In this document: piece after piece, positions 1,752-60,415 of the stretch
Numbering within the stretch: the first letter of the stretch is position 1
How the letters are laid out: each line of letters opens with the position of its first letter
Origin: a virus
Taxonomy: Duplodnaviria; Caudoviricetes
IMG/VR virus record: IMGVR_UViG_3300037313_001869
Span: 32,001 to 96,000 of that record
Length of the DNA stretch: 64,000 bases
Direction: 5' to 3' (one strand)
Notes under the pieces: model-generated
The model's input: only the letters and a program-made list of their open reading frames with translations
Database searches by the model: none
Told to the model about the DNA's origin: nothing
Translations under genes and position numbers: made by a program

Positions 1752-2102
1752 ATGGCCTCGCCCATTTTCAACAAGAAGCAGGAGCAACGGGGTCTCGCCA
1801 CCAAGGAGGCGCGGAGGATCAGCCGCACTTCCGACGGGCGGTCGTATGTCCCGGTTTCGGTCGCCACGGCCGAGAACCTGTGGAAGTACGCGACCCTGTG
1901 TGTGGAGAAGAAGGAGCCCTTCTCTCTCCTGAGCAACCTCGGCCCCTGGAACAAGGAAACCGGGACTCCGGCCATCCGGCTCATCCCTCCCGACCAGGTT
2001 CCCGAAGAGGCCGTGCGGCTCGTTCGTGAGGCGTTCGAGGCGATCGGCGCGGAGGTCCTCGAAGGACCTCCGGACCGGTTCGACCGCGAGGACGTGCTCT
2101 AA
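1752..2102 (+). CDS. hypothetical protein with RFDR tag
   Basis: Ends PDRFDREDVL-TAA. Confidence 0.8.
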   Translation: MASPIFNKKQEQRGLATKEARRISRTSDGRSYVPVSVATAENLWKYATLCVEKKEPFSLLSNLGPWNKETGTPAIRLIPPDQVPEEAVRLVREAFEAIGAEVLEGPPDRFDREDVL

Positions 2103-2642
2103 GAGCGCCATCCACTCGATCTTGGCGAACGAGAGGCCGAGCGCGAGGGCCTCGGCCGCCGTGATGACGAGCCCGTCCTTGCCCTCGGCCTTGACCCGGG
2201 AGGGCATGATGGGCTCGCCCGGGTGGAAGGTGAAGACCACCTCCTTGCCGTCGTCCTCGCCGAGGATGGCCACGGTGAAGGGAGCGACCTTGGCTTCGGC
2301 AGGGCGAAGGGCGACGCACGCCTCGACGAAGCCCGTCTTCTTCGGGTCGCGCAGGACCACGGGCGTCTCGGGGGGCAGGTCGGCGAGAGCCGAGAGCCCC
2401 TCGAAGCCCGGAAGCTCGGCCCGGAAAGCCGTGCAACCCTTCATCACGGCCGGGTGCTCGTAGGGGGCCCACGAGGCCGAGAAGAGCGCCGTCTCGATGG
2501 CCGACGGTTCGAGGTCGTAGCCGCTGCCGGCCGCTGCCGGAGAGAGCCGGGAGCGCATGGCAAGGCAGCTCGCGAAGTAGGCCGAGAGGGCCGAGCGGGT
2601 GGTGGAGAAAGCGACGAGAACGCGGGCGGTCGAGTTGGTCAT
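2100..2642 (-). CDS. hypothetical protein (ends at TTA)
   Basis: GAGGGGG RBS and ATG at 2642; in-frame TTA at 2102-2100 coincides with the convergent gene's TAA; code-11 extension would run about 600 nt antisense. Confidence 0.7.
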
Positions 2643-2686
2643 GCCCCCTCGATGCGCGACCCCTCCGGTATCTGACACGGTGTAGA

Positions 2687-3685
2687 ATGCTTCTCGTGAC
2701 CGACCTCCGAAACAAGATCCTGCTCGGTTCGTGCGAAGACCTCATCTGGCAGGTCCCCGACGGGTTTCTGCCGGCGCTCGTCACGGACCCGCCGTATGGA
2801 CTCGGTAACCGAGAGCCCTCGGCCCGCGAGATCGACGCCTACCTCGAAGGAGGGCGGCTGAACCTCGGCGGCGACTTCATGAACAAGAAGTGGGACATTC
2901 CCTCGGTCGCGTTCTGGAGAGAGTGCTACCGGGCCCTCGAAGACGGCGCCTACCTCGTCTCGTTCGGAGGGACCCGAACCTACGATCTCATCGGCGCCGG
3001 GCTTCTCGCGGCGGGCTTTCGGTGGGTCGCGAAGCGATACTGGGTTCAGTCTCAGGGGATGCCGAAGGGCGGGACCATCGGCAAGAAGATCGACCAGAAG
3101 GCCGGCGCTACGCGAAAGGTCGTCGGCCTGAAGAAGCTGAACGAGCGAGACACGAAGACCTACTACCCGAAGGCCGAGGGCGGCTACGGCGGCATGGACC
3201 CGGCGAACCGTCCGGCAAGCATGTTGATCACCGAGCCGGCCACCGAAGAGGCCGAGCTGTGGGAAGGCTGGGGCTCGACGCTCAAGCCCGCGTGGGAGCC
3301 CATCTACGTCGTCTCGAAGGGCGAGCCTCGCCGGCCCCTCGACCTCGATACGTTCCTCTACTGCGCCAAGGCCACGAAGAGCGAGACCACGCTCCGGGGC
3401 GAGATCGAGAACGATCACCCGACCAAAAAGCCGGTCGAGCTGATGCGCTGGCTTGTGCGTGCTGTCGCTCGACCCGGGGACCTCGTGCTCGACCCCTACG
3501 TGGGCTCAGGGTCAACGGCCGAGGCGCTCGTTCACGAGGGCATGGCCTACCTCGGCTTCGAGCGAGACCCGGCCTTTCACAAGATCGCCGACACCCGCGC
3601 AAGCATCGTGCTCGCAGAGCGCCAGGAGTTCGATGGGCATCGAAATGCTTTCGACCTGGCCATGTCCCTCGGAGACGACGAATGA
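2687..3685 (+). CDS. DNA N4-C/N6-A methyltransferase (beta class)
   Basis: TDPPY, HPTKKP, VLDPYVGSGST motifs; true start may be GTG 2696. Confidence 0.9.
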   Translation: MLLVTDLRNKILLGSCEDLIWQVPDGFLPALVTDPPYGLGNREPSAREIDAYLEGGRLNLGGDFMNKKWDIPSVAFWRECYRALEDGAYLVSFGGTRTYDLIGAGLLAAGFRWVAKRYWVQSQGMPKGGTIGKKIDQKAGATRKVVGLKKLNERDTKTYYPKAEGGYGGMDPANRPASMLITEPATEEAELWEGWGSTLKPAWEPIYVVSKGEPRRPLDLDTFLYCAKATKSETTLRGEIENDHPTKKPVELMRWLVRAVARPGDLVLDPYVGSGSTAEALVHEGMAYLGFERDPAFHKIADTRASIVLAERQEFDGHRNAFDLAMSLGDDE

Positions 3686-4452
3686 ACGCAGCCGCTCTCA
3701 TCCTCTCTGACGCCTTCGAGACCCGAGACGAGTGGGAGGTCCTCCTCTCTTCGGTTCTACCGGGGGCACACGTTGTTCTCGTCGAGGAGGGGCTCTTTCT
3801 CCGCTCCCTTCAGGCGAGGCGAGCGGGCTTTCACCTTCGCGACACGATCGCGTGCCTCTACCCGGGCGACCGGTCGAAGCTAGCCTACCTCTTCCGGGCG
3901 CCGATGAGCGAGAAGTCGCTGACGGACAACATCCTGAGGCACGGTACCGGGGGCCTGCACATCGACGCTTGCCGGGTCCAGACGAGCGACAAGCTCGGCG
4001 GAGGGGCCGAGAAGCGCTGCACCTTCGAGGACTCGGAAGGGTGGTCCCGCCCCTGGATGAAGGACCCCGAAGCCCAGGCGGCCTACGCGGCTCGGGCCCA
4101 GGCGGCCGTAGCACGGGCCGAGCAGCTCGGGAGGTGGCCCGCAAACCTGCTCCTCGTCCACGACCCTTCCTGTGGCCCCTCGTGCGCCCCTCTCTGCCCC
4201 GCGGCCCGTATCGGGGTTCAGAGCGGGCGACGGCCGGCCACCCTTACGGGGAGGGCCGACGGACCCCAGGAGAACCCCGCCACGGCCCGCCCCGACGCCT
4301 TCTTCGGCAACCTGAAGGGCGGTATTGGCGTGGTCTACGCCGACGACGGGGATGCGTCGCGGTACTTCCCCCAGTTCCGCAACGAAGAGGAGCTGTTCTC
4401 CTGGCTCGAACGGCTGGTGACGCCCGAGGGCAAAGCGTGCCTTCGCTTGTAA
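3682..4452 (+). CDS. methyltransferase-related protein lacking catalytic motifs
   Basis: GTGGLHIDACRV, GRWPANLL, ASRYF motifs resembling the variable insert of phage N4/N6 methylases. Confidence 0.65.
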   Translation: MNAAALILSDAFETRDEWEVLLSSVLPGAHVVLVEEGLFLRSLQARRAGFHLRDTIACLYPGDRSKLAYLFRAPMSEKSLTDNILRHGTGGLHIDACRVQTSDKLGGGAEKRCTFEDSEGWSRPWMKDPEAQAAYAARAQAAVARAEQLGRWPANLLLVHDPSCGPSCAPLCPAARIGVQSGRRPATLTGRADGPQENPATARPDAFFGNLKGGIGVVYADDGDASRYFPQFRNEEELFSWLERLVTPEGKACLRL

Positions 4453-4457
4453 AACCT

Positions 4458-4464
4458 CGGTGTA
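4458..4464 (+). promoter_or_regulatory. CGGTGTA start-proximal motif (representative of about 31 copies)
   Basis: 9 nt upstream of ATG 4474; full list in findings. Confidence 0.7.
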
Positions 4465-7625: not shown

Positions 7626-8138
7626 ATGGCGACAAGCTACATCAAAGATCCGTACGTCTACCTCGCGGCCCAGCTTTTCGGCGTGAAAGACGAAGAGGTG
7701 ACGTTCGACATGCGCGAGGCCATGAGGCGCGCGGTCAGCTACGCGGCCGAATCCGGCGCCCCTGCCAAGGTCCGGTTCTCGCTGCTTCGGCAGCACCTCA
7801 ACGGCCTGGGAAACCACCTCGACGGCATCAAGCTCCCGTTCACGCTGACCTGTGACCAGGGGAACATCGAGGCGCTTCTCGACTACTTCGCGACGCCGAA
7901 GACCGGTCCGTCCGAAGTCTCGCCGGGCCTCTACGAGCACTTCAAGGGCACGCGCTACCGGGTCCTTCTTGTCTCCCGCGACTCCGAGAGCCGGGAGAAG
8001 CGCGCCATCTACACCCCCCTGACGCCCGAGGAAGGGTGGGACGGGGTGCCGTGGGACCGTCCGGTCGGCATGTGGGGCGACCTTGTGAGGTGGCCCGACG
8101 GCAAGTACCGTACGCGCTTCGCCCGCGTGAGCGACTAA
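7626..8138 (+). CDS. DUF1653-domain protein
   Basis: PGLYEHFKGTRYRV...WDRPVGMW...RF; motif upstream. Confidence 0.75.
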   Translation: MATSYIKDPYVYLAAQLFGVKDEEVTFDMREAMRRAVSYAAESGAPAKVRFSLLRQHLNGLGNHLDGIKLPFTLTCDQGNIEALLDYFATPKTGPSEVSPGLYEHFKGTRYRVLLVSRDSESREKRAIYTPLTPEEGWDGVPWDRPVGMWGDLVRWPDGKYRTRFARVSD

Positions 8139-8585
8139 GGCATCGACCAAGAGGTACCGCAGATTCATGCGCGTATCCTGATCGCGGATCTTCCGGAACC
8201 CCGGGCCCAGCTCGTCGGCGAGCGGCTCGGGGAACTGGATCACGGTCGAGAGCTGATCCTGCTGCCGGCAGTAGCAGACGAGGCCAAGCAAGCTCGTCGT
8301 CGGGTCGTCGCAGCGGTAGAGGCGGTGGGCCAGGTGCTCGCAGAAGAGCGAGAAGAACACTTCGGCGTTCGCCGCTTGGTAGTAGACCGGTTCGAGCCTC
8401 CGGCCCCAGGGGTACCAGAGCAGCCGCCGCATTCTCTCCCGGCCCCGCAGCGATTTGCTGGCCAGGAAAGCGAACTCGGCGTGAGCCGGATCGTCGTGGT
8501 GGGTGACATGCCAGCCGCAGGCGGCCAGCTCGCCGGCCTCGTCGATGGCCGCTTGCAGGGTGGGGTAAGGGCCGTACGTCTTCAC
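8136..8585 (-). CDS. hypothetical protein (ends at TTA)
   Basis: In-frame TTA at 8138-8136; code-11 ORF would run on to 5682 across other genes; start codon uncertain. Confidence 0.6.
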
Positions 8586-15322: not shown

Positions 15323-17458
15323 TCACTCCGGGCCGTTGCCGACCTGCCGGTGGTACTTGCGGCAGATGAGAGCGGCCAGCTCCCACTGCTTCTCGGTCCA
15401 CCCGTACACCGAGTCGGCCGCGAGCCGGTGACCGCGGATCGTGTCGCCGCCGTCGAAACCCATGTCGTTCTTGGTGCCGGCGTGGTCGGGGTCGAGGTGG
15501 GCGAGGAGGCGGAGCGACTCGACCATCCACATCTCGCGGGGGTTCTGCGGAGCACGGCGGACAGGCACGTCCGCCGACGGGGCCGACGACACCTCGGGGG
15601 TGAGGAACTCGCCCCGGGCCCGCTTCGCCTCGAAGAAGCGGCGGCGCTCTTCGGCCTCGGCCCTCGCCTTGTCGGCTGCCGCTGCCTGCTCCTCGGCCGC
15701 CCGGGCGAGCGCCTCGAAGTCGATCTCGGGCACCGACGCCGTGGGCATCACATTGGTGGCGCTGTCGACCGAGGCCGCGATGAGCGCCTGCTTCTGGGTG
15801 AGAAGCTCCGAGACCCTCTCATCGATCGGGTGATCAGCGACCAGGTTGTAGACCACGACGCCGTTGGTCTGGCCGATGCGGCAGCAGCGGTCTTCCGCCT
15901 GGCTGTTGAGGGCCGGAGTCCACTCGCGGTCGACGAAGATTTCGATGTGAGCCCTCGTGAGGGTGATCGCGACGCCCATCGCCTTGATGGTGCCGGCGAC
16001 GCCCCGGAGCCTGCCGTTCTGGAAGGCTTCCTCGATCGCCGTCCGCTCTTCGGGCTTGGTGTCGCCCGTGATGACGGCCCAGCCCTCACGGCCCTTGAAC
16101 ATGTCGACCGGCTCCCGGTGCGCCGAGAAGACCACGATGGGCTCGTCCTGCTCCTCGTAGCCCTCGACCATTTCGAGCAGGGCGCCCATCTTGCACTTGG
16201 CGAGGGCCGCCCGCATGGCGGACATTTGCTCGAAGGCCGCCATGGTCTTCGGCAGGCCCTTCGAGAGGTCGATGCCCATCTCGGCGAGAGCCTTCGCGGT
16301 CTTCTCGCAGAGCTTCCGGGTCTTGGAGTCGATCTCGACCGTGATCGTGCTCCAGCTCTTCGTCGGCAGCTCGGGCAGGACCTCCGAACGGAGCCTGCGG
16401 AGAATGACCCGGCGGAGCCTGTCGGCCACCTCGGGCTTGGGCGTGCCCCAGACCATGCCGCCCCACGAGTCCTGGTGGCCGTTGAACAGCTCGACGAACT
16501 GCCGGTAGGAGCCGAACGCCTCGCGGGCGAGGTCCCCGGCCTGGAGGATGTTCCACAGCTCTTGCGGCTTGTTCAGCATGGGCGTGGCCGTGAGCATCCA
16601 CACCCGGCCGCCGGCCTCCCTCGCTGCCTCCGACAGGGCCCGGAAGCGGATCGTGCGCTGGGTCTTCGAGCCCTTGATGACGTGGGACTCGTCCGAGAGC
16701 AGGCAGAGGCCCGCGGGGGCCGGGCCCACCTCGGTCGGGAGGATGTCGTAGTTGATGATGACCAGCTCGCCCGGCTCGGGGTGGCGGTAGCTACCGCGGC
16801 CTGAGAGGACCGTGACGCGGAAGTCGGGGCGCCACTTCTGGGCCTCGCGGGCCCAGACGCCCTTCGCGACAGCCGGAGCCACGACCACGACCGGTACGCC
16901 CTCGGGCAAGCTGGTGAGGGCCTGGATCGTCTTACCGAGACCCATCTCGTCGCTCAGCATCGCGCCCGAACGGCCGGCGAGCCAGGCGATGCCCTTCTTC
17001 TGGAAGGGGAAGAGGGCGAGGTTACGGGCCCGGAGCCTCGCGTCGACCTCGGCCGCCCTCTCGTAGGCGCTCTCGACCGACTCGCGCATCGATTCGACCG
17101 TGGCCGAGAGGGTCGCGGCGAGTGACGGGGGCATGTCCACCACGAAGCCGGCCTCGTGCAGCTTGGCCACGATCGCCGGGGTCTTGGCGAGGGGCGCGAC
17201 CTGGCACTTGCGAATGCCGTCGTATTTAGCCCCCTCGCACGCCGCCCGGTAGGCGTCGAACTGGTCGTTCAGGTAGCCCGTCGGCTTGATGACGACGTTC
17301 GCCCCCTCCTGGGTGAGCTGGATCTTGACGGCCGGGGCTTCGCCCGAGCACTTCTGGCACGTCACCTTCCAGGCGCCGTTCTCCTTGGCGAGCGAGCCCT
17401 CGCCAGCGGCGACGTTGTTTCCACAGACCTTGCAGGGGGCAGGCATACGGTTCTTCAT
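15323..17458 (-). CDS. SNF2-family helicase/ATPase
   Basis: LSDEMGLGKT, SDESH, LTATP, QAEDRCCRIGQ; own RBS (AGAGGA) and ATG at 17458. Confidence 0.9.
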   Translation of the reverse strand: MKNRMPAPCKVCGNNVAAGEGSLAKENGAWKVTCQKCSGEAPAVKIQLTQEGANVVIKPTGYLNDQFDAYRAACEGAKYDGIRKCQVAPLAKTPAIVAKLHEAGFVVDMPPSLAATLSATVESMRESVESAYERAAEVDARLRARNLALFPFQKKGIAWLAGRSGAMLSDEMGLGKTIQALTSLPEGVPVVVVAPAVAKGVWAREAQKWRPDFRVTVLSGRGSYRHPEPGELVIINYDILPTEVGPAPAGLCLLSDESHVIKGSKTQRTIRFRALSEAAREAGGRVWMLTATPMLNKPQELWNILQAGDLAREAFGSYRQFVELFNGHQDSWGGMVWGTPKPEVADRLRRVILRRLRSEVLPELPTKSWSTITVEIDSKTRKLCEKTAKALAEMGIDLSKGLPKTMAAFEQMSAMRAALAKCKMGALLEMVEGYEEQDEPIVVFSAHREPVDMFKGREGWAVITGDTKPEERTAIEEAFQNGRLRGVAGTIKAMGVAITLTRAHIEIFVDREWTPALNSQAEDRCCRIGQTNGVVVYNLVADHPIDERVSELLTQKQALIAASVDSATNVMPTASVPEIDFEALARAAEEQAAAADKARAEAEERRRFFEAKRARGEFLTPEVSSAPSADVPVRRAPQNPREMWMVESLRLLAHLDPDHAGTKNDMGFDGGDTIRGHRLAADSVYGWTEKQWELAALICRKYHRQVGNGPE

Positions 17459-17524
17459 GGTTTCCTCTGGACGATCGAGCGGACCGTCTTTTTCCAAGAA
17501 TGCGAAGCCGTCTCCGTTCTGACG

Positions 17525-17809
17525 TAACTTCGGGTCGTCCTGGTCGATCAGGTCTTCGAGGATCGCGATGACCATGCGTTCGTATCGGCCGACCTCCTCC
17601 CGATGCAGCAGCTCGATCACCGGGAGCTTGCGCTTGCGCTCCTCGATCGTGTCGCGGGCCGTGAACGAGAGGAGGGGGTTTGGGCTGTAGTCGGCCGTCG
17701 GGGTCGTGACGGCCAGGATCTCAGCCTCGCCCGACTCGACGAACATGCCGAGGGAAGAGCAGGCGTCCTTCAGGTGCCAGAACAGCTCGGATGCCTCGGC
17801 CTTGGTCAC
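17525..17809 (-). CDS. hypothetical protein (ends at TTA)
   Basis: In-frame TTA at 17527-17525, followed by a spacer and the helicase RBS/ATG. Confidence 0.65.
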
Positions 17810-22897: not shown

Positions 22898-23362
22898 TAA
22901 GACACCGCCTTCGTCGTCGTCCTCTTCACCCTCGGCGCTGGCTTCGCCCTCTTCGCCCTCACTTCCGCTGTTCTCGCCGGCCATGTTGAGATCGTCGAGG
23001 TCTTGCAGAAGTTCGAGAACGTGTCCGACGCCCTGCTCGTCTCGCCACATGCCCACCCACCCGACGAGGGGCACGTCGCCGCAGTCGCACTCACACATGA
23101 CGTTCTCGTCGAGGGCGAACTCGGTCTCGGCCCGGACGAAGAGAAAGGTACGGACGAGGTTGCCGTGCTTGCCGTCCTGGCAAGGCAGCATGGCCCAGAG
23201 AACGATTTTGCCCGGCTTCGACTTGTCGTCGATGTTGAAGATTTGAGCCCCGAAGGGCAGCTCCATGATCACGCGCTGGGTATCGAGGCCGACTTCGATC
23301 CCCTTGATGATGTAGCGGGGAGGGGCGAACGGGAGGTGCTCGATCGAGTGGTTGTCGCTCAC
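22898..23362 (-). CDS. hypothetical phage protein with acidic tail (ends at TTA)
   Basis: Acidic tail, then in-frame TTA at 22900-22898, 7 nt before next start. Confidence 0.7.
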
Positions 23363-30486: not shown

Positions 30487-30529
30487 GTTCACCTGAACTG
30501 CATGAGTGCTTTCGGTGTAAGCACCTCTC

Positions 30530-35637: not shown

Positions 35638-36194
35638 AGGGTATCCCTTTCGAGAACCCGGCTCATCCGGGTCCAGGTACCGTGGGCGTGCCGCAGTGCG
35701 GCAATCAGCCTAACACACTCCTCGGCCGTGAACGAGCCCAAACTCCACCGCGCCTGAGGAATGGCTTCCTGGGAACACCAGTCGAGAAACCACCGCCTCG
35801 ACTCGGATACGGCCTCGTCGTCGAATGGGTCGCGGTCCTCGGGTGGGGCAAACGCCACACGAGGAACAAGTAGCTTGTAGGCTTCTTTTCGGAGCGCTCG
35901 GGTCCTGGCGTCGACCGGAGTGCCTACCGGCGAGCCATCGTCAAGAGCGGCTACGCTGCCCCGGCACGAAGTCTCCTCCCACCGAGAACAACCGTAAAAA
36001 AGGCCGTGTTTTCCGGACTTGAGGGTCAACATAGACCCGCAGTCGGGGCACGGGAGGTCGGTTCGCCGACCCGGAAGCATGGAACTCAGGGACCGAACGA
36101 GCTGGAGGAGCCGGGGGAACTTGTGTGCCAGGTCCGGGTCCAGATCGAGTCCGATGTCCTCTGCCATGAGGGGTCTATACCCCGGGACCTTCAA
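35634..36194 (-). CDS. topoisomerase-type C4 zinc-ribbon protein
   Basis: CPDCGSML...GLFYGCSRW...CRG. Confidence 0.75.
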   Translation of the reverse strand: MKVPGYRPLMAEDIGLDLDPDLAHKFPRLLQLVRSLSSMLPGRRTDLPCPDCGSMLTLKSGKHGLFYGCSRWEETSCRGSVAALDDGSPVGTPVDARTRALRKEAYKLLVPRVAFAPPEDRDPFDDEAVSESRRWFLDWCSQEAIPQARWSLGSFTAEECVRLIAALRHAHGTWTRMSRVLERDTL

Positions 36195-36890: not shown

Positions 36891-37778
36891 TCAAGCGTCC
36901 TGGAGGAGACGTACGAGTGGCGGACAGCGTCGCTTGATCCGTTTCTCCTCGGTCTTTGTCCGATGCCAGCCAACCACTAGCCCGATCGGGCTCCCGAGCG
37001 CGGCCCACTTCGAGGCGGCCGAGAGCAGTACGTAGAGGTCGTCCATGCCTCTGCGGGCCTCAATGTCTTCGAGCCCGTCGAGCACGACGACGAGCGACCC
37101 GATCAGCCGGTTGTGTCTCGCGAGGGCGAGCAGAAAGAGCAGGGCCTCGATCCGGTCTCCGTCGTCGAGGCGGTCGAGGGGGCCCGAGAGAATCGCGTCG
37201 TGCGCTTGCGCTTCCTCCCCTTGCAGCCACCGAACCAAGGTCTCGAAGGTGCTTCGCGCGGCTTGTTGCTCCCGCTCACCCATGGCCACGGCGTAACGAA
37301 GGTCCCCGAGCAAGGCCATGGCTTGTGCGTAGACCGAGTGTCGTCGATCCGCGAGGTCGAAGAGCTGCTCGGGTCGGGCAAGGTGGTTCACAACCCCGAG
37401 GCCCCAGAGGAGCTGCCAGCCCTCAATCCCAGGGGGCAGCCCTGCCACGTAGGACTCGGGCTCGCGGCACTCGATCGGAACCGGGCATCGCCGAAAGGCC
37501 GCTGTCAGAAAGTCAGCGCTGCGCCCTCTCCAAGAAGGGTCAGCCGAGAAGAAGGCCACAGTCCCAGGGCTGAAGATGGCTTCTTCCCGGGCGACCCTTT
37601 GGTAGAGTGCGTCTCGATCTCGCTGCTGACCGGTAACGAGCAGAAACGGCCGAGACCCTTCGCCGATCCTTCGCGACCACGCCACCGTCTCGTGCAAGAC
37701 GGCCGTTTCGATGATCGAAGGAAAGGGCCGAGCGCCCCGCAGGTCTTCCCAGTAGTCCTCCACGTCGAGCTTCGGCAT
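36891..37778 (-). CDS. hypothetical protein (possible degenerate P-loop fold)
   Basis: LVVVLDGLE is Walker-B-like; no clear Walker A. Confidence 0.65.
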   Translation of the reverse strand: MPKLDVEDYWEDLRGARPFPSIIETAVLHETVAWSRRIGEGSRPFLLVTGQQRDRDALYQRVAREEAIFSPGTVAFFSADPSWRGRSADFLTAAFRRCPVPIECREPESYVAGLPPGIEGWQLLWGLGVVNHLARPEQLFDLADRRHSVYAQAMALLGDLRYAVAMGEREQQAARSTFETLVRWLQGEEAQAHDAILSGPLDRLDDGDRIEALLFLLALARHNRLIGSLVVVLDGLEDIEARRGMDDLYVLLSAASKWAALGSPIGLVVGWHRTKTEEKRIKRRCPPLVRLLQDA

Positions 37779-38368
37779 AACGGGCCAAGCGTCTCATCGA
37801 GAAAGAAGCGCATCGGCTTTCGGAGTTGCGGCGAGTAGAAGTCGACCGCAATCCGGCCGTCTACCTCCCGGACCACTCGGTAGTTGTCGAGCTTACCATC
37901 GCGTCGATGGCTTTCGAGGGCGAGAAGCCCGTGGTAGCCCAGCATCACACCGGAGAGGTTTGCGAGCGACCGGTCGAGAAGGGTTCGGGGCAGGGCTCGC
38001 ACGAGCGCTTGGATCTCCGCCGGGGTCATCCCATCAGCGCTCGCCATGAGGCAGCCGAAGAGTCCGCGGGCCTCGGACGCTTGCGCCTTCTTCCACTGAA
38101 CAAAGAAGGTCGAGGCCCCGGCCGAGATCATGGCGGCGAGCATCTCGCTCGTCACAGGCTGCCCGTCGTATTGCTGGAACTTGGCCTTCAGCTCCTCGAC
38201 CGTGGCGTGGTGGGCCTTGTCGTAGAGAACGAAGTCGTCGTGCTCCGGGGGCAACACCGCCGAAGGTGGAGGAGCGGGCCGGTTTCGGAGGTCTTCCCAG
38301 AACTCCTCGGTGCCAAAGCCCGGGTCTTCCTTCGACGCCCGCTCGATCGCGTCGAGCGTGGGTTTCAC
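37778..38368 (-). CDS. hypothetical protein (ends at TTA)
   Basis: GTGA start overlap; in-frame TTA overlaps next ATG (TTATG). Confidence 0.7.
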
Positions 38369-38865: not shown

Positions 38866-39117
38866 TAACGACGGCCGGGGCCAGGGGCTCACGGTCATGT
38901 TGACCACGGGCAGGTGCCTCGTAGCGTCCCATTCGGCGTGGGCGGAGACGAGAGCTTGCTGGGCATAGGGGGTGGCGTCGAGCATCGCCAGAAACACCCT
39001 CCAGCCCTGGAGGTCGTCTCCCGTCGGGTAGCGATCGTAGGCCAGAACGTGCTGCGCCAGGTCCCCAACCATATCGCTTCGGTGGACCTGGACGCTGAGC
39101 CATCGGACGAAAGACAT
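38866..39117 (-). CDS. YozE-like (SAM-like) protein (ends at TTA)
   Basis: SFVRWL..Q..R.D.VGDLA...D..YP; GGAGG RBS; in-frame TTA at 38868-38866. Confidence 0.65.
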
Positions 39118-39181
39118 GTGCGGCACCTCCACCCCAAGCCGGCCGCATAGCTGCACTATAGAGGGCAGGGGGCGGGTACCG

Positions 39182-40801: not shown

Positions 40802-41164
40802 TAAGCGAGGCGTCTTCGGTTGGGCCCGCTCGACAACCGACACCATCCCCTCGGCGTACCCGCCCGGACCGAGCCGCACCTCGTAGGCCCCCTCTTCGAG
40901 CGCCTTGACGATCCTGCGGGTCATCTCCGCGTAGTCGCCTGCGCCCTCGACCGAATAGACCGCCTCCACGTACGTCCATCCCCTCGGGCCACGCTCGACT
41001 TGCACGCCCTCTTCGCCGACCTCGAAGCCTTTCTTCCGCAGAAAGGCCGCGACGTGCTGCGGCGTGGTCGGTGCGAGCTGGGTACCCTGCCGGTAGATTG
41101 ACGCGATCTTCTCGGCTTGGGCGCGCTCACGGTACCTGGAGGCGATTCGGTATGCCTGCGACAT
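40802..41164 (-). CDS. hypothetical protein (ends at TTA)
   Basis: In-frame TTA 31 nt before the protease start; otherwise would overlap it by about 540 nt. Confidence 0.7.
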
Positions 41165-50136: not shown

Positions 50137-50364
50137 GTGACCCTCGCGGACGAGATCGAGCACGACTGGCGCTTCACCCTCCTTCGGCCGTTCCCGAAGC
50201 CGCACAGGGAGGAGCGTGACCCGAACGCCCCTCCGAAGTCGATGATGGAGCAGGTTTTCGAGGACCTGTCGAGGAAGATCGCGGCGGAGCTAGACGAGGA
50301 GATCCTGGGGTCGATTCCGGAGCTTCCCGTCTACCCCTCCCGCTTCGAGCGCCTCGCCGCCTAA
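50137..50364 (+). CDS. small protein with RFER tag
   Basis: Ends YPSRFERLAA-TAA. Confidence 0.7.
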   Translation: MTLADEIEHDWRFTLLRPFPKPHREERDPNAPPKSMMEQVFEDLSRKIAAELDEEILGSIPELPVYPSRFERLAA

Positions 50365-51288
50365 GAGCCCGTCCATCACCATGCTGAGCAGGGCCATGCG
50401 GACGTAGAGCCCGTTCTGGACCTGGGTGAAGTACCGGGCCCGGGGGTCCTGGTCGATGGCCTTGTCGATCTCGCTCACCCGGGGCAGCGGGTGCAAGATC
50501 ATGGCGTCGGGCTTCATGGACTGGACCATGGGCAGGGTGAGGTTGCACGAGTCCTTGACGGCCGCGTAGGACTCTTCGTTGGCGAAGCGCTCCTTCTGCA
50601 CCCTCGTGATGTAGAACACGTCGGCGTATTCGAGCGCGTCGCTGAAGCGGCTCGTCAGAACGACGGGGATGTCCTTCGGCAGAAGATCGCGGTACTCGTC
50701 CGGCAGCCGGAGAGACAGGGGGGCGACGAGGTAGAGGGACCGGAGCTTGTACCGGCTGAGGAGCTTCAGAAGCGAGTGGACCGTGCGCCCATTCTTCAGG
50801 TCCCCGACGAACGCCACACTCAGGCCGTCGAGCGACTCCCTCTCGGCCGCGATCGTGTAGAGGTCGAGAAGGGCCTGGGTCGGGTGCTCGCCGATGCCGT
50901 CACCTGCGTTGATGACCGGCACCGGCGAGACCTCGGCCGCCCGGGCCGCCGCGCCCATCTCGGGGTGCCGGAGCACGATGGCATCGGCGTACTGGCCGAG
51001 CGTCATGATCGTGTCTTCGAGCGTCTCGCCCTTGGTCACGCTCGAAAACTGCACGCCCTGGGTGATCGGGATGACCGAGCCCCCGAGCCTCGTCATGGCT
51101 GCGATGAACGACGACGAGGTCCGGGTCGAGGGCTCGTAGAACAGGCACGCCAGCACCCGGCGCCGCAGCCGATCGGAGCTGTGGTAGCGCGTGACCATCT
51201 GGGCCATCTCGCGCGTGCGGGTGAAGACCTCTTTGATGTGGTCGTTCGTGAACTGGTCGACGCTGAGGATGTGCTTGAGCTTCTCCAT
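50362..51288 (-). CDS. pyrB: aspartate carbamoyltransferase catalytic subunit (ends at TTA)
   Basis: FYEPSTRT, KGETLED, HPTQALLD, HPLPR, QVQNGLYVRMALL; 308 aa if TTA is a stop. Confidence 0.95.
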
Positions 51289-51815
51289 CATTCCTCCGGC
51301 AGGCGGCTGATCTTCCAGAACTTCGAGAACGAGTCTTGAGGCTTCTTCTCCCACCCGGGCCGCTGACCGGTACAGGTGACGAGCCACTTCGAGGGATGAA
51401 GCTTCTGGGGCCGCTTGAACCGGGCCTCGTCATCGGAGAGCTTCGAGATGGCCTCGGCGTCGGGCATATAATACTGGACGACCCACTCCTCGGGCCCGCG
51501 CTTCTCCACGATCTTCCACATGTTCTGGTTGATGCAGAGGTGCTCGCCCTTCTTGCCTCCGAAACCGTGGCCGTCCTCGAAGACCGTGATCGGCTCTCCC
51601 TCCCCCGTCTCGACCAGATCGTACCAAGGGTAGCTGTGCGAGACCGGCGGCGGGTCGGGGTAGACCGTCTTGCCTTCGAGGATGCGCTGAAAGAGCGGCG
51701 AGTGCGCCAGGTCCACAGCGAATCGGTGCGCCCTGTCGGGGTACATGCCGTAGCGCTGGCGGTATTCGAGCCAGCGGGTCACGGCCTTGATGACCTTGTC
51801 GGTGGAGTCGTCCAT
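51288..51815 (-). CDS. hypothetical protein
   Basis: CGGTGTC 10 nt upstream; TGATG overlap with pyrB. Confidence 0.75.
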   Translation of the reverse strand: MDDSTDKVIKAVTRWLEYRQRYGMYPDRAHRFAVDLAHSPLFQRILEGKTVYPDPPPVSHSYPWYDLVETGEGEPITVFEDGHGFGGKKGEHLCINQNMWKIVEKRGPEEWVVQYYMPDAEAISKLSDDEARFKRPQKLHPSKWLVTCTGQRPGWEKKPQDSFSKFWKISRLPEE

Positions 51816-51822
51816 GGCGTCC

Positions 51823-52575
51823 TAAGACACCGAGAGCGAGCGCGTCGATTCGGCCATAGAGCGGGTCGAGGCCGTTCATCTCGTTTCGCACGAGGTGGCC
51901 GAAGTCCTCGTCCGGGATGCCCGTCGACTCGGCTTCCGAGGCGTGGCTTCTCCAGCTCTCGTCGTTCTTCTTCGGAGGAGGGGCGAGCACGCGCCAGGTC
52001 TGTCCGCCCTCGTCCTCGATGGCCCCCATCTCGTTCCGGAAGCGCATGTCGGGGATCACGATACCCTTGGGGGTCTCGTACCCGCCTCGATCGTACGGCC
52101 ACTGAAGGAGTCCCTGGGTGTGGTGGTAGCCGTACTTCCCCCCAGGCGAGAGAACCTTGCGGGCGATGTTGAAGGCGTAGTTGACCCAGGTATCCTCGAA
52201 GCAGGTTCGGCCAAATTCCGTTCCCAACTTTTGCAAAGCTTCGCGCGGCGTGAGGTAGGTCATGCGAAGATGGCACTTGGGGCACGCCAGGCCCTCGTAC
52301 TCCAGATGTTCGAGCACCATGTGCTCCGGGGCCCTCTTCACCCCCGCCTGGGCGCACCAGGGGCACACCTTCCACTTCGGGTAGCGCAGGTCGGGCACGC
52401 TCCGAAGCTCCGACGGCCCCCAGAGCTGCTCTTCGCTGAAGTCGTAGACCTCGCGGCAGTAGCGCTTCAGGGGGTCAGCGAAGGCGATCTTGGCGAAGCC
52501 GTGGTGGTTGACGAGCCGGTCGGCAATCGTGTCCTTGCCCGACCCGGCGGGCCCCGAGATTCCTACGATCCTCAT
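51823..52575 (-). CDS. deoxynucleoside monophosphate kinase with Zn-finger insert (ends at TTA)
   Basis: GPAGSGKDT, FADPLK, TPREALQKLGTE, PDMRFRNE, HASE. Confidence 0.88.
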
Positions 52576-53977: not shown

Positions 53978-54523
53978 ATGTCCTCTGTCACCGTGCTGAT
54001 GCGCCGCGACTACCAGCTCGTCGAGCAAGCGCTCCCCCGAGACACCCTGGTCATTCAGGTCCCGACCGAGTACGGCTGGGGCTCACCCGACGGCAACCTT
54101 TACGGCGTCGAGATCGAAGAGGTGCTCCCTCCCTCCCGAGGGCTCCGAAGCTACCGCCGCGAAGCCCGAGCCCAGACCGAGAAGCGCTACCGCCTCCGGT
54201 TCTCCGAAAGCTCCGCCCGGTACGTCCGAGCGATTCGCGGGCCGCTAGAGAAGTTCGTGATGGAGCGACGGAAGAAGGCCGATGTTCGAGAGTACGTCGA
54301 GATCGAGGTGAAAGCCTGCCGGCTCGGCGACCTCCCCGAAGGTGCCCACGCCCTTCTCGAACACCGCGACGAGGACGACGATTTCTCGTGGGAAGCCCTC
54401 CGCGTCCACCGAGTGCCCCCGACCCGCAAGCAGGTGGAGAAGGCCGAAGGCAAGATCCGCTACAAGCAGCGGGCCTACCTCCGGCTCCCGACTCGGTACG
54501 ATCGCCTCAGCGCCGAGGACTTA
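53978..54523 (+). CDS. hypothetical protein with RYDR tag (ends at TTA)
   Basis: Ends PTRYDRLSAED then TTA at 54521, coinciding with convergent TAA. Confidence 0.7.
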
Positions 54524-56209
54524 GTCGAGCCCCGGGGGCAGCGCCACGGGCGTTTCGTCCCCGCCCTCGATGGCGGCCATGTCCTCGGGCACCCGCCCTT
54601 CCTTCACGAGCCGGGCGACCATCTTCGCGAGCTGAGCCCGCCGGGTATCGTCGAGCGATCCGCCCTTGGTCGGGTTCGGAAGGCGCGTGGTCAGGTAGAG
54701 GGCCTCGACGAGCGTGATCTGGGAAGGGGCTTCGGAAAGGAGCTTCTTCGCCGCGGGCCCGATCCCGTAGATGTTCGGCCCGAACTCGACCACGTTCAGG
54801 TACGTTTCGAGGATCTGCTCTTTCGTCAGGCACGATTCGAGCGCGAAGGTGAGAAACGCCTCCTGAGCTTTGCGCCCGAGCGTCCGCTCCCTCCGAAGCC
54901 AGAGATTCTTCGCGAGCTGCATCGTGAGGGTCGATCCCCCACGCACTACCTTGCCCGCCTTCACGTTCTCGATGAGCGAGTTCTCGTAGGCTTGCCGGAT
55001 AAAACCCCGATGGACGAAGAAGCCCGGGTCTTCCGTATTCGTGAGCGCCATGGCCATCGTCGGGCTCACGTCCCCCAAGGGTACCCACTCGGCCGTTGCG
55101 GGCCCGGTCGTACGCTCGAAGGGCTGCCCTCCCTTGTCGTAGGCCACGTAGGTGAAGCGCTTGCGGAGCGTCTGGGCGAAGCCCAAGGGGGCACAGGCGG
55201 CCTTGCACGTCATGTCGAGCGAGAGCTTGGGCTTTTCCCCGGCGTCGACCTTCGCCCGGATGTCGCCCGAGAGCTGGAGGCTCGCAAAGGGGGCCGGGGC
55301 CTTCAGCTCGTCCGGGAGAAGCCCGAGCCAGTCCTGGCACGACCCGGCGGCCTCCACCGTCTTCGCCTTGGCGTCAACCGCAAGCCGGACCGAAGCCCGC
55401 TCGACCCAGAGCTTGCCTGCCGGATCGAAGGTCACCCGCAGATCGTGGGACGTGAGAGATTCGGAAGAAAGCGCCGGACTCTCTACTGTGGCCCTCTTCG
55501 CCACGGCAACGAGCTGGCCCCCCTCCTCAGTAACCGTTGCCTCCTCGGCCAAGGCAGCGAAGGGGTAGGGCACCTTCGGGCTCGGGGGGCGGTTCTCGAT
55601 CGAGAGTTGCCCCACGGTGGCCTTCCGCTCCTTCGGCAGAACCCGTACGTCCGCGGAGGAGACCATCGGTACCCCAGGCCCGATGGCCAGCGCCGTCGTG
55701 AGCACGACCTCGGTGCCGTCCGTCCGGGCCCAGCCTTCGCCGAAGAGAACCGTCTGGTAGCCGTGCTCGGTGAGCGGCGGATAGAGGACCTTGGCCCCCT
55801 CGAACGAGACCCGGCCCTCTTCGTAGGCGACGCCCTGAAAGCGCACCTCGGCGCCGTCCTTGCGGACCGTGACGGTCATTGCCCGCGCTGTCACCTGGTA
55901 GCCGCTGGCCGTGGTGCCTGAGCCCGCCTTCCTTGCCCCAGGGTCGACCACGAACGAGCCCCCCTCGGCCACAACGTGCTTGTCCCAGGAGCAGAAGACG
56001 CTCTCGGCCCGGCCCTGGACCCAGGGCTTTGTCACCGACACGCCGCGGAGGGTAAGCCCCTTCTGCCCGACCGAGAGCGCCTCGACCTGGAAGTCAGGCC
56101 CCAGATTTTTTCGCACGTAGGCGAGGGATATCGCGGGGGCGGCGACATAGAAGACGACAAGCGACCCGACGAGCAGGCCGACGACATAAAACAGGCGTTT
56201 TGCGTTCAT
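54521..56209 (-). CDS. peptidoglycan glycosyltransferase (GT51, monofunctional type)
   Basis: TEDPGFFVHRG, RGGSTLTMQLAKNL, RKAQE, YLNVVEFG; N-terminal TM; no transpeptidase domain. Confidence 0.9.
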   Translation of the reverse strand: MNAKRLFYVVGLLVGSLVVFYVAAPAISLAYVRKNLGPDFQVEALSVGQKGLTLRGVSVTKPWVQGRAESVFCSWDKHVVAEGGSFVVDPGARKAGSGTTASGYQVTARAMTVTVRKDGAEVRFQGVAYEEGRVSFEGAKVLYPPLTEHGYQTVLFGEGWARTDGTEVVLTTALAIGPGVPMVSSADVRVLPKERKATVGQLSIENRPPSPKVPYPFAALAEEATVTEEGGQLVAVAKRATVESPALSSESLTSHDLRVTFDPAGKLWVERASVRLAVDAKAKTVEAAGSCQDWLGLLPDELKAPAPFASLQLSGDIRAKVDAGEKPKLSLDMTCKAACAPLGFAQTLRKRFTYVAYDKGGQPFERTTGPATAEWVPLGDVSPTMAMALTNTEDPGFFVHRGFIRQAYENSLIENVKAGKVVRGGSTLTMQLAKNLWLRRERTLGRKAQEAFLTFALESCLTKEQILETYLNVVEFGPNIYGIGPAAKKLLSEAPSQITLVEALYLTTRLPNPTKGGSLDDTRRAQLAKMVARLVKEGRVPEDMAAIEGGDETPVALPPGLD

Positions 56210-56289: not shown

Positions 56290-57492
56290 ATGCGCTCCAT
56301 GGAACTCCGCCTCAACGACCAGCTTCTCTACCATTCGACCTTCGACCCAGCGACGGGCAACCTCGTCCGCGCGGTCGAGATCGGCGAGAGGTACGATTCG
56401 CCGTGGGATGTGCATGGCAAGTCCGACGAGGACAAGGCGTGGAAGGCACGCTACGGCTACCGCCACGGGCCGTTCTCGCCCTCGCCGGAGCTGGTGGACA
56501 TCGCCATCACCGACAAATGCTACATGGGCTGCACCTACTGCTACCAGGACAGCCGCCCGAAGCGCGACCACGCCCCGAAGGAGCTGGTCGAGAAGATGAT
56601 CCAAGGCTTCGATTACGCCCCTTACCAGGTCGCGATCGGCGGCGGCGAGCCGACGCTTCACCCTGATCTGCCCTACATCCTGCGGCGGGCACGGGAGCTG
56701 GGCTCGGTACCCAACTACACGACCGCGGGCGATCAGATCCGCGAGGACGTGATCGAGGCGACCAACGAGGTCTGCGGCGGCGTCGCCATGACCTACCACA
56801 GCTTCAAGGGCATCGACTGGTTCGTCTCGCACTACCAGGCCCTTCGCGACCGGCTGAAGGTCCAGCTCAACGTCCACCTCATCGCTGACAAGGACGTGGC
56901 CACGAACCTGCTCGCGCTCTGTTCCCGGTACAAGGAACTCGGGCGGCTCCGGCTCGTCCTGCTCGCCTACTACCCTGACGTGGGCCGGGCGTCGATGGAC
57001 CGGCTCCTCGCCAAGCGTACGTACATGAAGGACCTGCCCGAGGCGATCAAGTTCGCCCGCGTCTCGGGCTTCGACATTGCCTTCAGCGAGGGGCTCCTTC
57101 CCTTCTTCCTCTCGCGCCCCGGTCTCGGGGTCGAGACGAAGTTCGCGATGGCCGTCGAGGGCAAGTTCTCGTGCTACTTCGACACGCGCGGCCGGATCGC
57201 GGTATCGAGCTTCGACCACCGGGGCCTCAACTGGGAGCGCGACGACGAGGTTCGCCCTACGGTCTTCACCCACAGCTCGCAGAGCATGTGGGACAAACTC
57301 TGGGGGAGCCACACCAGCCCTCGGGGCGACGCCTGCTACGACTGCGCCCAGCGGCCGAGGTGCGCGACGCCCCACGACTTCCACTACTTCGTCTGCGCCT
57401 TCGCCCAGCACAACCAGACGCCGCTCCGCGAGCCCGACGTGACCCCCGAAACCGCCCACGACCGCGTCCTCAAGGACGACGAGGTGATCTGA
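56290..57492 (+). CDS. radical SAM protein
   Basis: CYMGCTYC, GGGEP; C-terminal Cys cluster. Confidence 0.92.
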   Translation: MRSMELRLNDQLLYHSTFDPATGNLVRAVEIGERYDSPWDVHGKSDEDKAWKARYGYRHGPFSPSPELVDIAITDKCYMGCTYCYQDSRPKRDHAPKELVEKMIQGFDYAPYQVAIGGGEPTLHPDLPYILRRARELGSVPNYTTAGDQIREDVIEATNEVCGGVAMTYHSFKGIDWFVSHYQALRDRLKVQLNVHLIADKDVATNLLALCSRYKELGRLRLVLLAYYPDVGRASMDRLLAKRTYMKDLPEAIKFARVSGFDIAFSEGLLPFFLSRPGLGVETKFAMAVEGKFSCYFDTRGRIAVSSFDHRGLNWERDDEVRPTVFTHSSQSMWDKLWGSHTSPRGDACYDCAQRPRCATPHDFHYFVCAFAQHNQTPLREPDVTPETAHDRVLKDDEVI

Positions 57493-57881
57493 TGCCTCTC
57501 CTTCTCTCCATCAACACGAGCTTCATCACCAACAGCAGCTCGGCCGTTCACCACTTCCCGCGCGAGCTTCTGAACGACCCGTCCATCCGGGCCTTCATCG
57601 CGGCGTTCGAGCTGGATGGCGGCGTCATCGGCTCGGACATGTGGTCGCGTGACCTCTGCACGACCGTGGCCATGACCCCCGAGCAAAAACAGGAGGTCCT
57701 CTCCAAGCTCGTCACGGGTTCGGAGTATTGCAGCCCTCCGTCCATCCAGACCGACGACGACACGATCCTCATCATCTACGGTGACGAGCACACGAGCGTG
57801 GCCTCGTCGCTCGCGCGGCTGATGGAGTCAGTGGCCGAGAAGCTGGGCATCAAGCTCCAGGGCAGCCAGGAGTACAACTTA
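57492..57881 (+). CDS. NSSS-motif protein (ends at TTA)
   Basis: TGATG overlap with rSAM; SFITNSSS; TTA at 57879 coincides with convergent TAA. Confidence 0.7.
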
Positions 57882-58199
57882 CTCTTCGGGGTCTTCGTCG
57901 TAGAAGCCCCCGCCCCGGTCTTCCCCTTCGAGCACGAGGTAGCCTGGATGCAGGCCCTCGTGGACCTCACGGTGGCATCGGCAGCAAAGGAGCACCGTGC
58001 GGTCCAGCTCGACCTTGACCACGTCCCACTTCTGCCGGGCTGAGATATTGAAGTCCTTCTGCCGAGGGTCGGGGTGGTGAAAGTCAAATCCGGACAGGGA
58101 CTTGTCGTAGCCGCAAATCTGACAGCGACCGCCCTTGTATGCGACGGCTCGTGCCCGAAGCTCCCGCCGCTTTCTCGCTCGGTCCCATCGGTCGGCCAT
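57879..58199 (-). CDS. HNH endonuclease
   Basis: GGRCQICGY...FHH.DP..K...LLCCRCHREVH. Confidence 0.88.
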   Translation of the reverse strand: MADRWDRARKRRELRARAVAYKGGRCQICGYDKSLSGFDFHHPDPRQKDFNISARQKWDVVKVELDRTVLLCCRCHREVHEGLHPGYLVLEGEDRGGGFYDEDPEE

Positions 58200-58245
58200 T
58201 GCCCAAGAGCCCGTCAAAAGCAGGACTATCAGCGACTACCCTACC

Positions 58246-59108: not shown

Positions 59109-59181
59109 GCCACGAAAGACTAGACGGGGAAGTTGGCCCCGACTACCCTGGTGGGTTCTGCTAGCGCCTAGGAGGTAGCTC

Positions 59182-59448
59182 GTGCGGAAAAAGCTGGTCT
59201 TGCAGGATACCTTTCGGGTTCTTGAAGCGGGCCCGTGGGACGCCGATAGTTTCGGTCCGGTGCGCGTTGCGCTCTACCAGACCCGGGGCGATGCTTTTTT
59301 TCCCTCCCGTATGGTCGTGTCAGTGACACAGCCGAAAGGCGGGGAGCTGTTTCGTTTCGACGCATCGACCTACCAGTTCGAGGGGGGTACGTTGCGGGTC
59401 TTCTGTGACAAGGCCGTCTCGCGCTGGGTCTTTCGTACGGTCCAGTAG
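59182..59448 (+). CDS. hypothetical protein
   Basis: AGGAGGT RBS before GTG. Confidence 0.65.
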   Translation: MRKKLVLQDTFRVLEAGPWDADSFGPVRVALYQTRGDAFFPSRMVVSVTQPKGGELFRFDASTYQFEGGTLRVFCDKAVSRWVFRTVQ

Positions 59449-59489
59449 CCTCTCCGGGTAGCCCCGGATCGCTCGGTAATCCTTCGATC

Positions 59490-59525
59490 GAACCCCTGAG
59501 GGAAACACCCTTCCCTCAGGGGTTC
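59490..59525. repeat. perfect 15-bp inverted repeat upstream of dam
   Basis: GAACCCCTGAGGGAA-ACACCC-TTCCCTCAGGGGTTC. Confidence 0.75.
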
Positions 59526-59554
59526 ACCCTGCGATCCGGTGTCTTGGAGAGAAG

Positions 59555-60415
59555 ATGAGCAGAGCACAACCTTTCCTGAAGTGGGCTGGCGGCAAGAGGC
59601 AACTTCTCCCCGCCCTTCTCCAGCGGCTTCCGTCGGAGATGAAGACGTACTACGAGCCCTTCCTCGGTGGTGGTGCGCTCTTCTGGGCCCTTGACGCCGA
59701 GGACGCCTTCGACCGAGCCGTGGTCGGGGACATGAACCCCGAGCTGGCCAACGCCTACCGGCTCTTCGCCGGCCCGGCCCATGGGGTCGAACGGGTGGTC
59801 GAGCTGCTGAAGGGCTACCCCCACACGCGCGAGTTCTTCGAGGACATGCGCCGGAAACTGCCGCACGAGCTGGGCGAAGCCGAGCGCGCAGCCTGGCTCA
59901 TCTACCTGAACCGAACGTGCTTCAACGGCCTCTACCGGGTCAACAAGATGGGGGTCTTCAACGTGCCCTTCGGCGACTACGAAAACCCGACCATCTGCGA
60001 CGAGGACAACCTGCGCGAGGTGGCCGAAGCCTTGCGCAACCCTCGGCTGACGTTCATGCAGGCAGACTTCGAGCAAATCGTCCAGACGGCCGAGGCTGGG
60101 GACGTGGTCTACTTCGATCCGCCGTACTTGCCCCGAAGCGATACGGCCCGATTTGCCGAGTACGTCGTCGATGGGTTCGACATGGCGAAGCACGAACGAC
60201 TCGCCAGGGTCTTCGCCGACTTGGCCAACCGAGGGGTTGGCGTGCTCCTGTCGAACTCGGACACGCCCGCAACCCGGGAGCTGTACCGGGACTTCCAGAT
60301 CGACACGGTCTACGCCAAGCGAGCCATCAACGCCAAGGGCGACAAGCGGGGGCCCATCCCCGAGATCCTGGTCTCGGCGAACCTGACCCCCGCGCCCGCT
60401 GCCGAAGTCGGCTTA
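59555..60415 (+). CDS. dam: Dam-family DNA adenine methyltransferase (ends at TTA)
   Basis: PFLKWAGGK, EPFLGGG, YFDPPY, LLSNS, EILVSAN; 286 aa if TTA is a stop. Confidence 0.92.

Follow-up and report, generated by a model that had tools for sequence, protein, structure and literature searches.

Evidence for TTA as a probable fourth stop codon in a 435-kb bacteriophage

The window analyzed here, a stretch of 64,000 nucleotides (bases 32001-96000) of IMG/VR virus record IMGVR_UViG_3300037313_001869 (Duplodnaviria; Caudoviricetes), holds eight places at which two convergent genes end on one and the same triplet, which is TAA for the gene on one strand and TTA for the gene on the other (Table 1). 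The complete record comprises 435,218 bp with 64.8% guanine plus cytosine (GC) and is classed in IMG/VR as a virus with direct terminal repeats, with a CheckV completeness of 100%. It is a huge phage infecting a bacterium, the bacterial host following from its transfer-messenger RNA (tmRNA), a bacterial kind of molecule, and it carries typical phage genes (deoxynucleotide monophosphate kinase, Dam methylase, transglycosylase) as well as 44 transfer RNA (tRNA) genes grouped at 266-300 kb of the record. Comparisons of its reading frames, protein ends, and relatives indicate that TTA (UUA) has very probably ceased to encode leucine in this phage and serves as a fourth stop beside TGA, TAG, and TAA.

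All eight positions hold TAA or TTA, as the first-pass annotation of the window had claimed, and at every one of them the triplet is in frame for open reading frames (ORFs) of both strands. The ordinary 4-bp CTAG overlap that it had also described, in which two convergent ORFs both end in TAG, is present as well, the minus-strand ORF at this junction having a modest coding signal only. Real genes of the phage have GC contents of ~0.66, ~0.46, and ~0.84 at the first, second, and third codon positions, and this pattern was found upstream of the triplet on both strands at all eight sites; past the TTA, the frame that reads it switches to the mirrored pattern of an antisense “shadow” (~0.85/0.5/0.67). 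If read through, the frames at sites 1 to 8 would run on to the next standard stop for 200, 817, 53, 92, 23, 465, 53, and 63 codons, respectively. The 817-codon run-on at site 2 is the antisense shadow of plus-strand genes (0.87/0.60/0.49), and that of 465 codons at site 6 aligns only because it lies antisense to the transglycosylase gene. A gene caller that treats TTA as a stop called both partners at 8 of 8 sites, family matches were obtained for four partners (DUF1653, 2'-5' RNA ligase/Acb1-like, transglycosylase, and, weakly, HNH), and translation with NCBI table 23 reads the TTA sites of the window as stops. At these sites, then, a single triplet is where two convergent genes, both of them real, come together.

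Under the standard code, TTA would be a rare leucine codon, the genes would run on, and the pattern would be a shadow-ORF artifact of high-GC DNA. High-GC genomes do give long antisense ORFs that end exactly at rare TTA, CTA, and TCA codons, and the public gene calls of this phage are themselves run-on products: databases hold a site 7 protein of 183 amino acids (P0001, extending 54 residues past the TTA, vs. 129) and a Dam protein of 350 (vs. 286), and the small convergent genes are absent from these standard-code calls. We nevertheless regard this explanation as very unlikely indeed, given that the coding signal of the TTA-reading gene halts at the TTA, becoming shadow or another frame, and that orthologs and homologs end at the TTA, with the run-on never covered.

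The latter point was examined with 38 TTA-ended genes and 89 ortholog pairs from related phages. The standard stop of the ortholog falls on the very codon of the TTA in 26 of the 89 pairs, within 3 codons of it in 49, and within 10 codons in 77. Ortholog alignments that reached 40-200 residues past the TTA were rejected because they proved to translate, out of frame, a conserved gene lying downstream, the subject sequence being interrupted by stops. At site 1, 13 homologs of the minus-strand protein could be aligned (of 21 found), most of them ending no more than 3 residues from the TTA and none (0 of 13) covering the 200-codon run-on. At site 7, 10 of 10 database homologs (127-138 amino acids) end in ...[DESG]Y[NH] and the phage protein ends in ...EYN followed by TTA, while the orthologs in related contigs L025, L047, and L048 have TAA at the TTA codon. 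Dam orthologs at site 8 stop 9 codons before, 3 codons after, and 16 codons after the TTA position, and the plus-strand gene of site 6 yielded a single weak homolog with a similar end point. A homolog search with the minus-strand gene of site 2 found none. Elsewhere in the window, ten orthologs of the deoxynucleotide monophosphate kinase stop 1-10 codons past the TTA, its 130-codon run-on being covered by none. The domains of the carbamoyltransferase, Dam, and Volactin proteins are complete and end 5-28 residues ahead of the TTA; at site 5, for example, the Pfam OTCace match reaches profile position 156 of 157 at 5 residues upstream of the TTA, and at site 8 the Pfam D12 domain is complete (1-253 of 253).

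A further marker of protein ends is the motif R[FY][DE][RKH], which we used solely as a sign of true C-termini. Of the 577 proteins, 78 (13.5%) have it among their final 16 residues, vs. 14 of 6,937 interior windows of 16 residues (0.2%), and it occupies this C-terminal position in 5 of the 67 TTA-ended proteins (Poisson P = 3e-7), including those of sites 3 (RFDK, 9 residues upstream of the TTA), 4 (RFDR, 6 residues), and 6 (RYDR, 5 residues). The motif often precedes a small number of acidic residues with V or PV behind them, and a function as a signal for targeting, packaging, or processing is possible.

A non-coding gene points the same way. In the tmRNA, which Rfam matches at 78.8 bits (E = 3e-30), the tag reading frame is ANDNFAASPALAA followed by TTA, the next standard stop coming 7 codons further on, whereas in three related phages the tmRNA tags have 13 residues, take the same form (ANDN...AA), and are directly followed by TGA-TAG, TAG-TGA, or TGA. 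The frame in this RNA, with its ...ALAA end directly before the TTA, thus also uses TTA as its end, and the standard code would deprive the tag of that end. ARAGORN gives no tmRNA call for this phage, perhaps because the tag frame is not closed by a standard stop where one is expected.

Might the TTAs be sequence or assembly errors, or edited positions that are really TAA in the DNA or become UAA in the mRNA? A separate Logan assembly, made from another sequencing run, SRR35147159, encodes the same standard-code products, without differences, at two of the TTA sites. Were the TTA strand to read TAA, the partner would lose its own TAA at the shared triplets, of which the genome has 15, and an explanation by ~67 systematic errors specific to one frame lacks credibility. 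We know of no U-to-A editing in bacteria or phages. Error or editing is scarcely conceivable as an explanation.

The behavior of TTA across the entire genome was assessed with a six-phase codon model trained on strongly periodic segments of the phage genome: for each codon preceded by 40 confident in-frame coding codons, we asked whether the next 40 codons are coding in the same frame. Same-frame coding continued past only 3 of 62 TTAs (5%), which compares with 12% for TAA, 10% for TAG, and 9% for TGA, the true stops, with 24-48% for the rare A-ending sense codons CTA, TCA, ATA, and AGA, and with 50-70% for the ordinary sense codons tested. The difference between TTA and the pooled rare A-ending codons is significant (Fisher P = 9e-9), and the continuation past CTA (39%) and TCA (48%), unlike TTA, is at odds with the standard-code explanation. 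The three continuing TTAs, together with three weaker cases, are each a TTA followed 0-14 codons on by the same-frame ATG of the next gene, as also happens at true stops. The remaining in-frame TTAs in standard-code gene calls lie either in run-ons after a first TTA or upstream of a conserved N-terminus, where the start was miscalled, and no TTA interior to a gene was found across the genome. TAG as a sense codon, a candidate raised by a crude test of third-position GC, was rejected as an artifact of an antisense frame with shared third positions, for which the six-phase model was substituted. Neither TAG nor TGA was encountered inside conserved genes in the manner of phage-type stop recoding; all continuing TAGs are a stop and then the next ATG.

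Calling genes with TTA as a stop gave 577 genes and 86.4% coverage vs. 524 genes and 82.0% under the standard code. Among the 577 genes, 369 end in TGA, 82 in TAG, 67 in TTA, and 59 in TAA, so that roughly one gene in nine (~12%) ends at TTA, among them genes for large conserved proteins of 822-1284 residues. Only ~15 of the TTA ends lie at convergent junctions; the other ~50 stand before a co-directional gene or intergenic DNA, which speaks against a shadow-ORF artifact. The spacing between a TTA end and the start that follows is distributed like that of TAA and TAG and includes TTATG stop/start overlaps. TTA-ended genes are unevenly spread, making up from 4% to 29% of the genes per 50-kb bin (chi-square P = 1.7e-4) and being densest at 50-100 kb of the record, which is in this window, and at 200-250 kb; this could reflect expression modules.

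The first-pass annotation had argued from the eight coincidences that TTA terminates translation, and had proposed a tabulation of frame offsets at all convergent junctions, at which one in three would be in frame by chance. When this was done, 15 of 24 overlapping junctions were in frame (binomial P = 0.003). Of 48 convergent junctions genome-wide, 15 share exactly the 3-bp TAA/TTA overlap, the commonest single class, to which all eight sites of the window belong (8 of the genome's 15), and 15 of the 20 TAA-ended genes at convergent junctions share the triplet with their partner. Termination at TTA is thus borne out and reaches far beyond the junctions from which it was proposed, with ~50 of ~67 TTA ends lying elsewhere. 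Since the reverse complement of TAA is TTA, a code in which TTA is a stop makes TAA a stop for both strands, and convergent genes can therefore abut on one triplet; the shared triplet is a by-product of TTA as a stop.

Two related phages were used as controls with the same self-trained phase test: G001 (400 kb of 407 kb) and G002 (all 350 kb). G001 (57.8% GC) has 17 in-frame TTAs, several of them clearly interior, and G002 (59.7% GC) has 3, and both possess a tRNA-Leu(UAA); the phage studied here (64.8% GC) has 62, all at gene ends, and lacks this tRNA. Where a TTA of G001 lies close to a gene end, a standard stop comes 0-16 codons after it. Because the interior TTAs of G001 were found, the test detects sense TTA where it is present, which again speaks against a shadow-ORF artifact. 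The clade is TTA-poor, and of the three phages compared only this one is without tRNA-Leu(UAA) and has TTA at gene ends. It may be added that the 17 and 3 in-frame TTAs of G001 and G002 stand against 112-286 CTA codons in 350-400 kb, despite their own tRNA-Leu(UAA); this avoidance suggests that the hosts decode UUA poorly, a plausible pre-adaptation for reassignment. The closest relatives in IMG/VR are phages of 350-510 kb with ~29-53% protein identity (to a 562-residue query), in which TTA ends are not used. A related-locus search for closer relatives with a TTA-ended protein of 1284 residues gave no match.

The leucine tRNAs among the 44 have the anticodons CAA, GAG, and CAG, with none for UAA. 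Comparing leucine tRNAs across the phages revealed no derivative of tRNA-Leu(UAA) in this one, and ARAGORN at a relaxed threshold produced ~890 calls that were noise only. Separately, the phage encodes a tRNA of amber-suppressor type with anticodon CUA (Rfam 58 bits), whose variable arm is long and whose CCA is encoded, and which stands isolated in an intergenic gap remote from the tRNA array; yet TAG acts as an ordinary stop for 82 genes.

The absence of a cognate tRNA is also what would be expected if UUA were an unassigned, “hungry” codon at which ribosomes stall and are then resolved by rescue or drop-off (an ArfB-like factor, peptidyl-tRNA drop-off, or slow action of a near-cognate release factor), with no dedicated recognition. 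The failure to find a release-factor gene in the phage and the near absence of TTA from related phages would suit this explanation, and human eRF1 binds UUA as a near-cognate codon with no peptide release (bioRxiv 10.1101/2024.09.01.610654). We consider it improbable, however. With ~12% of the genes depending on TTA, including those for the conserved proteins of 822-1284 residues, release must be efficient, and back-up stops are not enriched close by: a median of 72 codons separates the TTA from the next standard stop in its frame. Moreover, stalls resolved by tmRNA would mark phage proteins for degradation, and the tag itself ends in UUA, so that rescue would stall on its own message and be unworkable.

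A hungry TTA might instead provoke a +1 shift of the ribosome and termination at a stop in the new frame, TTAG and TTAA being read as T-TAG and T-TAA. In 31 of the 67 cases the TTA precedes G or A and would give an immediate +1 TAG or TAA, but C or T follows in the remaining 36 (TTAC or TTAT), and at 28 of the 67 the +1 frame stays open for at least 30 codons. Furthermore, G at position +4 is equally frequent after TAA (42% in both), and at convergent sites it is accounted for by the last codon of the partner gene, the third position of which is GC-rich. The chances of such shifting appear very slight.

Several observations weigh against a fourth stop codon all the same. Three of the TAA-ended partners in the window (30238-30492, 57879-58199, and 60413-60589) are weak, with scores of 12-17, and the gene calls come from a home-made model with approximate start codons. 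The tRNA set also lacks Ser-GCU and Val-UAC/CAC, and with such gaps at other codons, the absence of Leu(UAA) is no more than suggestive. Finally, domain searches of the phage for RF-1, eRF1 (eRF1_2), translational GTPase (GTP_EFTU), and Pth found none; a motif scan of the phage for a release-factor-like GGQ protein was likewise negative, and no release-factor genes were found in the related phages.

Of the other TTA-ended genes in the window, four have orthologs that bear on their ends. The G001 ortholog of 31102-31542 stops at the very same codon, and that of 38866-39132 stops 2 codons past the TTA position; orthologs of 37778-38368 stop 8 (L025) and 14 (L028) codons past it; and in the region of 17525-17809 the G001 ortholog alignment spans just the downstream 724-residue gene. 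Profiles from PHROGs and Pfam gave no function for most of the large TTA-ended proteins. Outside the window, a TTA-ended gene has a full-length match to Volactin (PF25216; E = 1e-70), an actin-like family, and its product is a candidate phage cytoskeletal protein. The minus-strand protein of site 4 belongs to the 2'-5' RNA ligase/LigT family and has a second match, to the anti-CBASS phosphodiesterase Acb1 (E = 4e-9), so that a role in counter-defence is possible. At site 7, the gene with the weak HNH match has the appearance of a mobile insertion, its TAA coinciding with the neighbor's TTA, because in L047 and L048 the 129-residue gene is directly followed by a co-directional nucleoside deoxyribosyltransferase-like gene. 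Start contexts are unusual genome-wide, with C at ~50% in positions -2 and -1 (ACC, CCC, or GCC before ATG); the purine-rich region upstream of starts is weak, and a Shine-Dalgarno-like core is present in 40% of strong genes.

Table 1. Genes meeting on shared TAA/TTA triplets, other TTA-ended genes of the window, and features elsewhere in the record (positions in the window unless marked “record”).
Feature	Coordinates	Strand	Length (aa, amino acids)	Stop	Shared triplet	Match or context
Site 1	1752-2102	+	116	TAA	2100-2102	
Site 1	2100-2678	-	192	TTA	2100-2102	
Site 2	7626-8138	+	170	TAA	8136-8138	DUF1653
Site 2	8136-8585	-	149	TTA	8136-8138	
Site 3	29893-30240	+	115	TTA	30238-30240	
Site 3	30238-30492	-	84	TAA	30238-30240	weak
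Site 4	31542-32309	+	255	TTA	32307-32309	
Site 4	32307-32870	-	187	TAA	32307-32309	2'-5' RNA ligase/LigT/Acb1-like
Site 5	50137-50364	+	75	TAA	50362-50364	
Site 5	50362-51387	-	341	TTA	50362-50364	aspartate/ornithine carbamoyltransferase
Site 6	53978-54523	+	181	TTA	54521-54523	
Site 6	54521-56209	-	562	TAA	54521-54523	transglycosylase
Site 7	57492-57881	+	129	TTA	57879-57881	
Site 7	57879-58199	-	106	TAA	57879-57881	weak HNH match
Site 8	59555-60415	+	286	TTA	60413-60415	Dam-type N6-adenine methyltransferase
Site 8	60413-60589	-	58	TAA	60413-60415	weak
CTAG overlap	35634-35637			TAG/TAG		ordinary 4-bp convergent overlap
ORF at CTAG overlap	35634-36194	-		TAG		
TTA-ended gene	17525-17809	-	94	TTA		next gene 15323-17497 in same frame 9 codons on
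TTA-ended gene	22898-23362	-	154	TTA		gene caller
TTA-ended gene	25982-27166	+	394	TTA		AAA ATPase; next gene begins 3 nucleotides on
TTA-ended gene	31102-31542	+	146	TTA		TTATG overlap with ATG of next gene
TTA-ended gene	34599-35072	-	157	TTA		gene caller
TTA-ended gene	37778-38368	-	196	TTA		TTATG overlap with next gene 36891-37778
TTA-ended gene	38866-39132	-	88	TTA		weak call
TTA-ended gene	40802-41164	-	120	TTA		intergenic DNA after
TTA-ended gene	51823-52575	-	250	TTA		deoxynucleotide monophosphate kinase
Volactin-matching gene	record 199999-201012	-		TTA		
tmRNA	record 269912-270439	-		TTA		tag reading frame
tRNA, anticodon CUA	record 331929-332021	-				

As to how UUA might terminate translation, it would be read by a class-I release factor of the RF2 type with altered codon recognition, unopposed by a competing tRNA-Leu(UAA). 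Because no such gene was found in the phage, the terminating factor is most likely the host's, in a host with the same code; by analogy with organelles, a host-encoded altered RF2 appears to be the leading candidate for the agent, although its chances fall somewhat short of even. An unrecognized phage factor combined with loss of the host tRNA-Leu(UAA) comes next, as a distinctly more tentative possibility. It is conceivable, if rather unlikely, that the phage imposes the four-stop code on a host with the standard code by removing or out-competing its tRNA-Leu(UAA) and supplying a novel termination factor (protein or RNA); were this so, TTA-containing genes of the host and of rival elements would be truncated while those of the phage were read correctly, and the switch of code would be a weapon of host takeover. 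Less exotic, and still new, would be a high-GC bacterial host lineage that itself stops at UUA by means of an altered RF2. A scan of genome contigs for a clue to the host returned a single, irrelevant match, to a Parcubacteria metagenome-assembled genome. The probable route to a fourth stop codon would be codon capture, in which TTA nearly disappeared from the high-GC clade, the phage lost its tRNA-Leu(UAA), and the codon came back as a stop.

If TTA is indeed a stop in this phage, capture of a sense codon for termination is possible in a large, gene-rich genome. One of two things would then be predicted to exist: a lineage of bacteria whose RF2 is modified and which lacks tRNA-Leu(UAA), or a phage termination factor of a new type. 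The very compact gene junction, one triplet stopping both strands, would be explained. Code-inference tools that test amino-acid meanings only would have a blind spot, and public annotations of the phage would carry dozens of over-long or missing genes (577 vs. 524 calls). The phage would also offer a natural template for engineering four-stop or compressed codes.

Known changes of the code in bacteria and phages turn a stop into a sense codon or swap one amino acid for another, and no virus or cytoplasmic system of bacterial type is known to us in which a sense codon has turned into a stop. Our literature search likewise found no sense-to-stop reassignment in a phage or bacterium, such changes being described only from mitochondria and a plastid. 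In high-GC genomes TTA nearly vanishes and its tRNA becomes dispensable, which is the expected precondition for codon capture; G001 and G002 show that TTA-poor state. High-GC bacteria offer further parallels in the TTA/bldA regulation of Streptomyces and the unassigned AGA and AUA codons of Micrococcus luteus, but in those bacteria, unlike this phage, TTA is leucine or simply stalls and is not a regular gene end.

Phages that have recoded stops (TAG to Gln or TGA to Trp; Lak, crAss-like, and others) likewise cannot be read with table 11 (bioRxiv 10.1101/2021.08.26.457843; PMC11210395). The present phage, too, is large, has many tRNAs, one of suppressor type (CUA) included, and is mis-annotated by standard gene callers; the direction of change is opposite, however, since here a sense codon has apparently become a stop, TAG and TGA stay stops, and no release factor was found in the phage. 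In vertebrate mitochondria, termination at AGA and AGG is handled by mtRF1 (PMC9810596), a specialized class-I release factor, and there, too, sense codons without a cognate tRNA stand at the ends of ORFs; only two ORFs are affected vs. about 67 genes here, and a dedicated paralogous release factor is known only in the mitochondrial case. The closest known match among variant genetic codes is the organellar UUA-stop codes, namely NCBI table 23 of Thraustochytrium/Labyrinthulea mitochondria, the code of peDinoflagellate plastids (UUA, UCA), and that of the mitochondria of Marsupiomonadales and Pseudoscourfieldia (UUA, UUG) (PMC12574857). In organelles UUA became a stop several times, each time with the cognate tRNA lost and either the serine (Ser204) of the RF2 SPF motif substituted or RF1a remodeled, and the 2025 paper calls its plastid case the first sense-to-stop change outside mitochondria (PMC12574857). 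Organelle genomes are tiny and import dedicated release factors with mutated codon-binding motifs, whereas the phage has 435 kb, relies on bacterial cytoplasmic translation, and yielded no release-factor gene. In both, however, the genome encodes no cognate tRNA (anticodon UAA), UUA stands beside the standard stops, and annotation with the standard code yields falsely “fused” or over-long genes.

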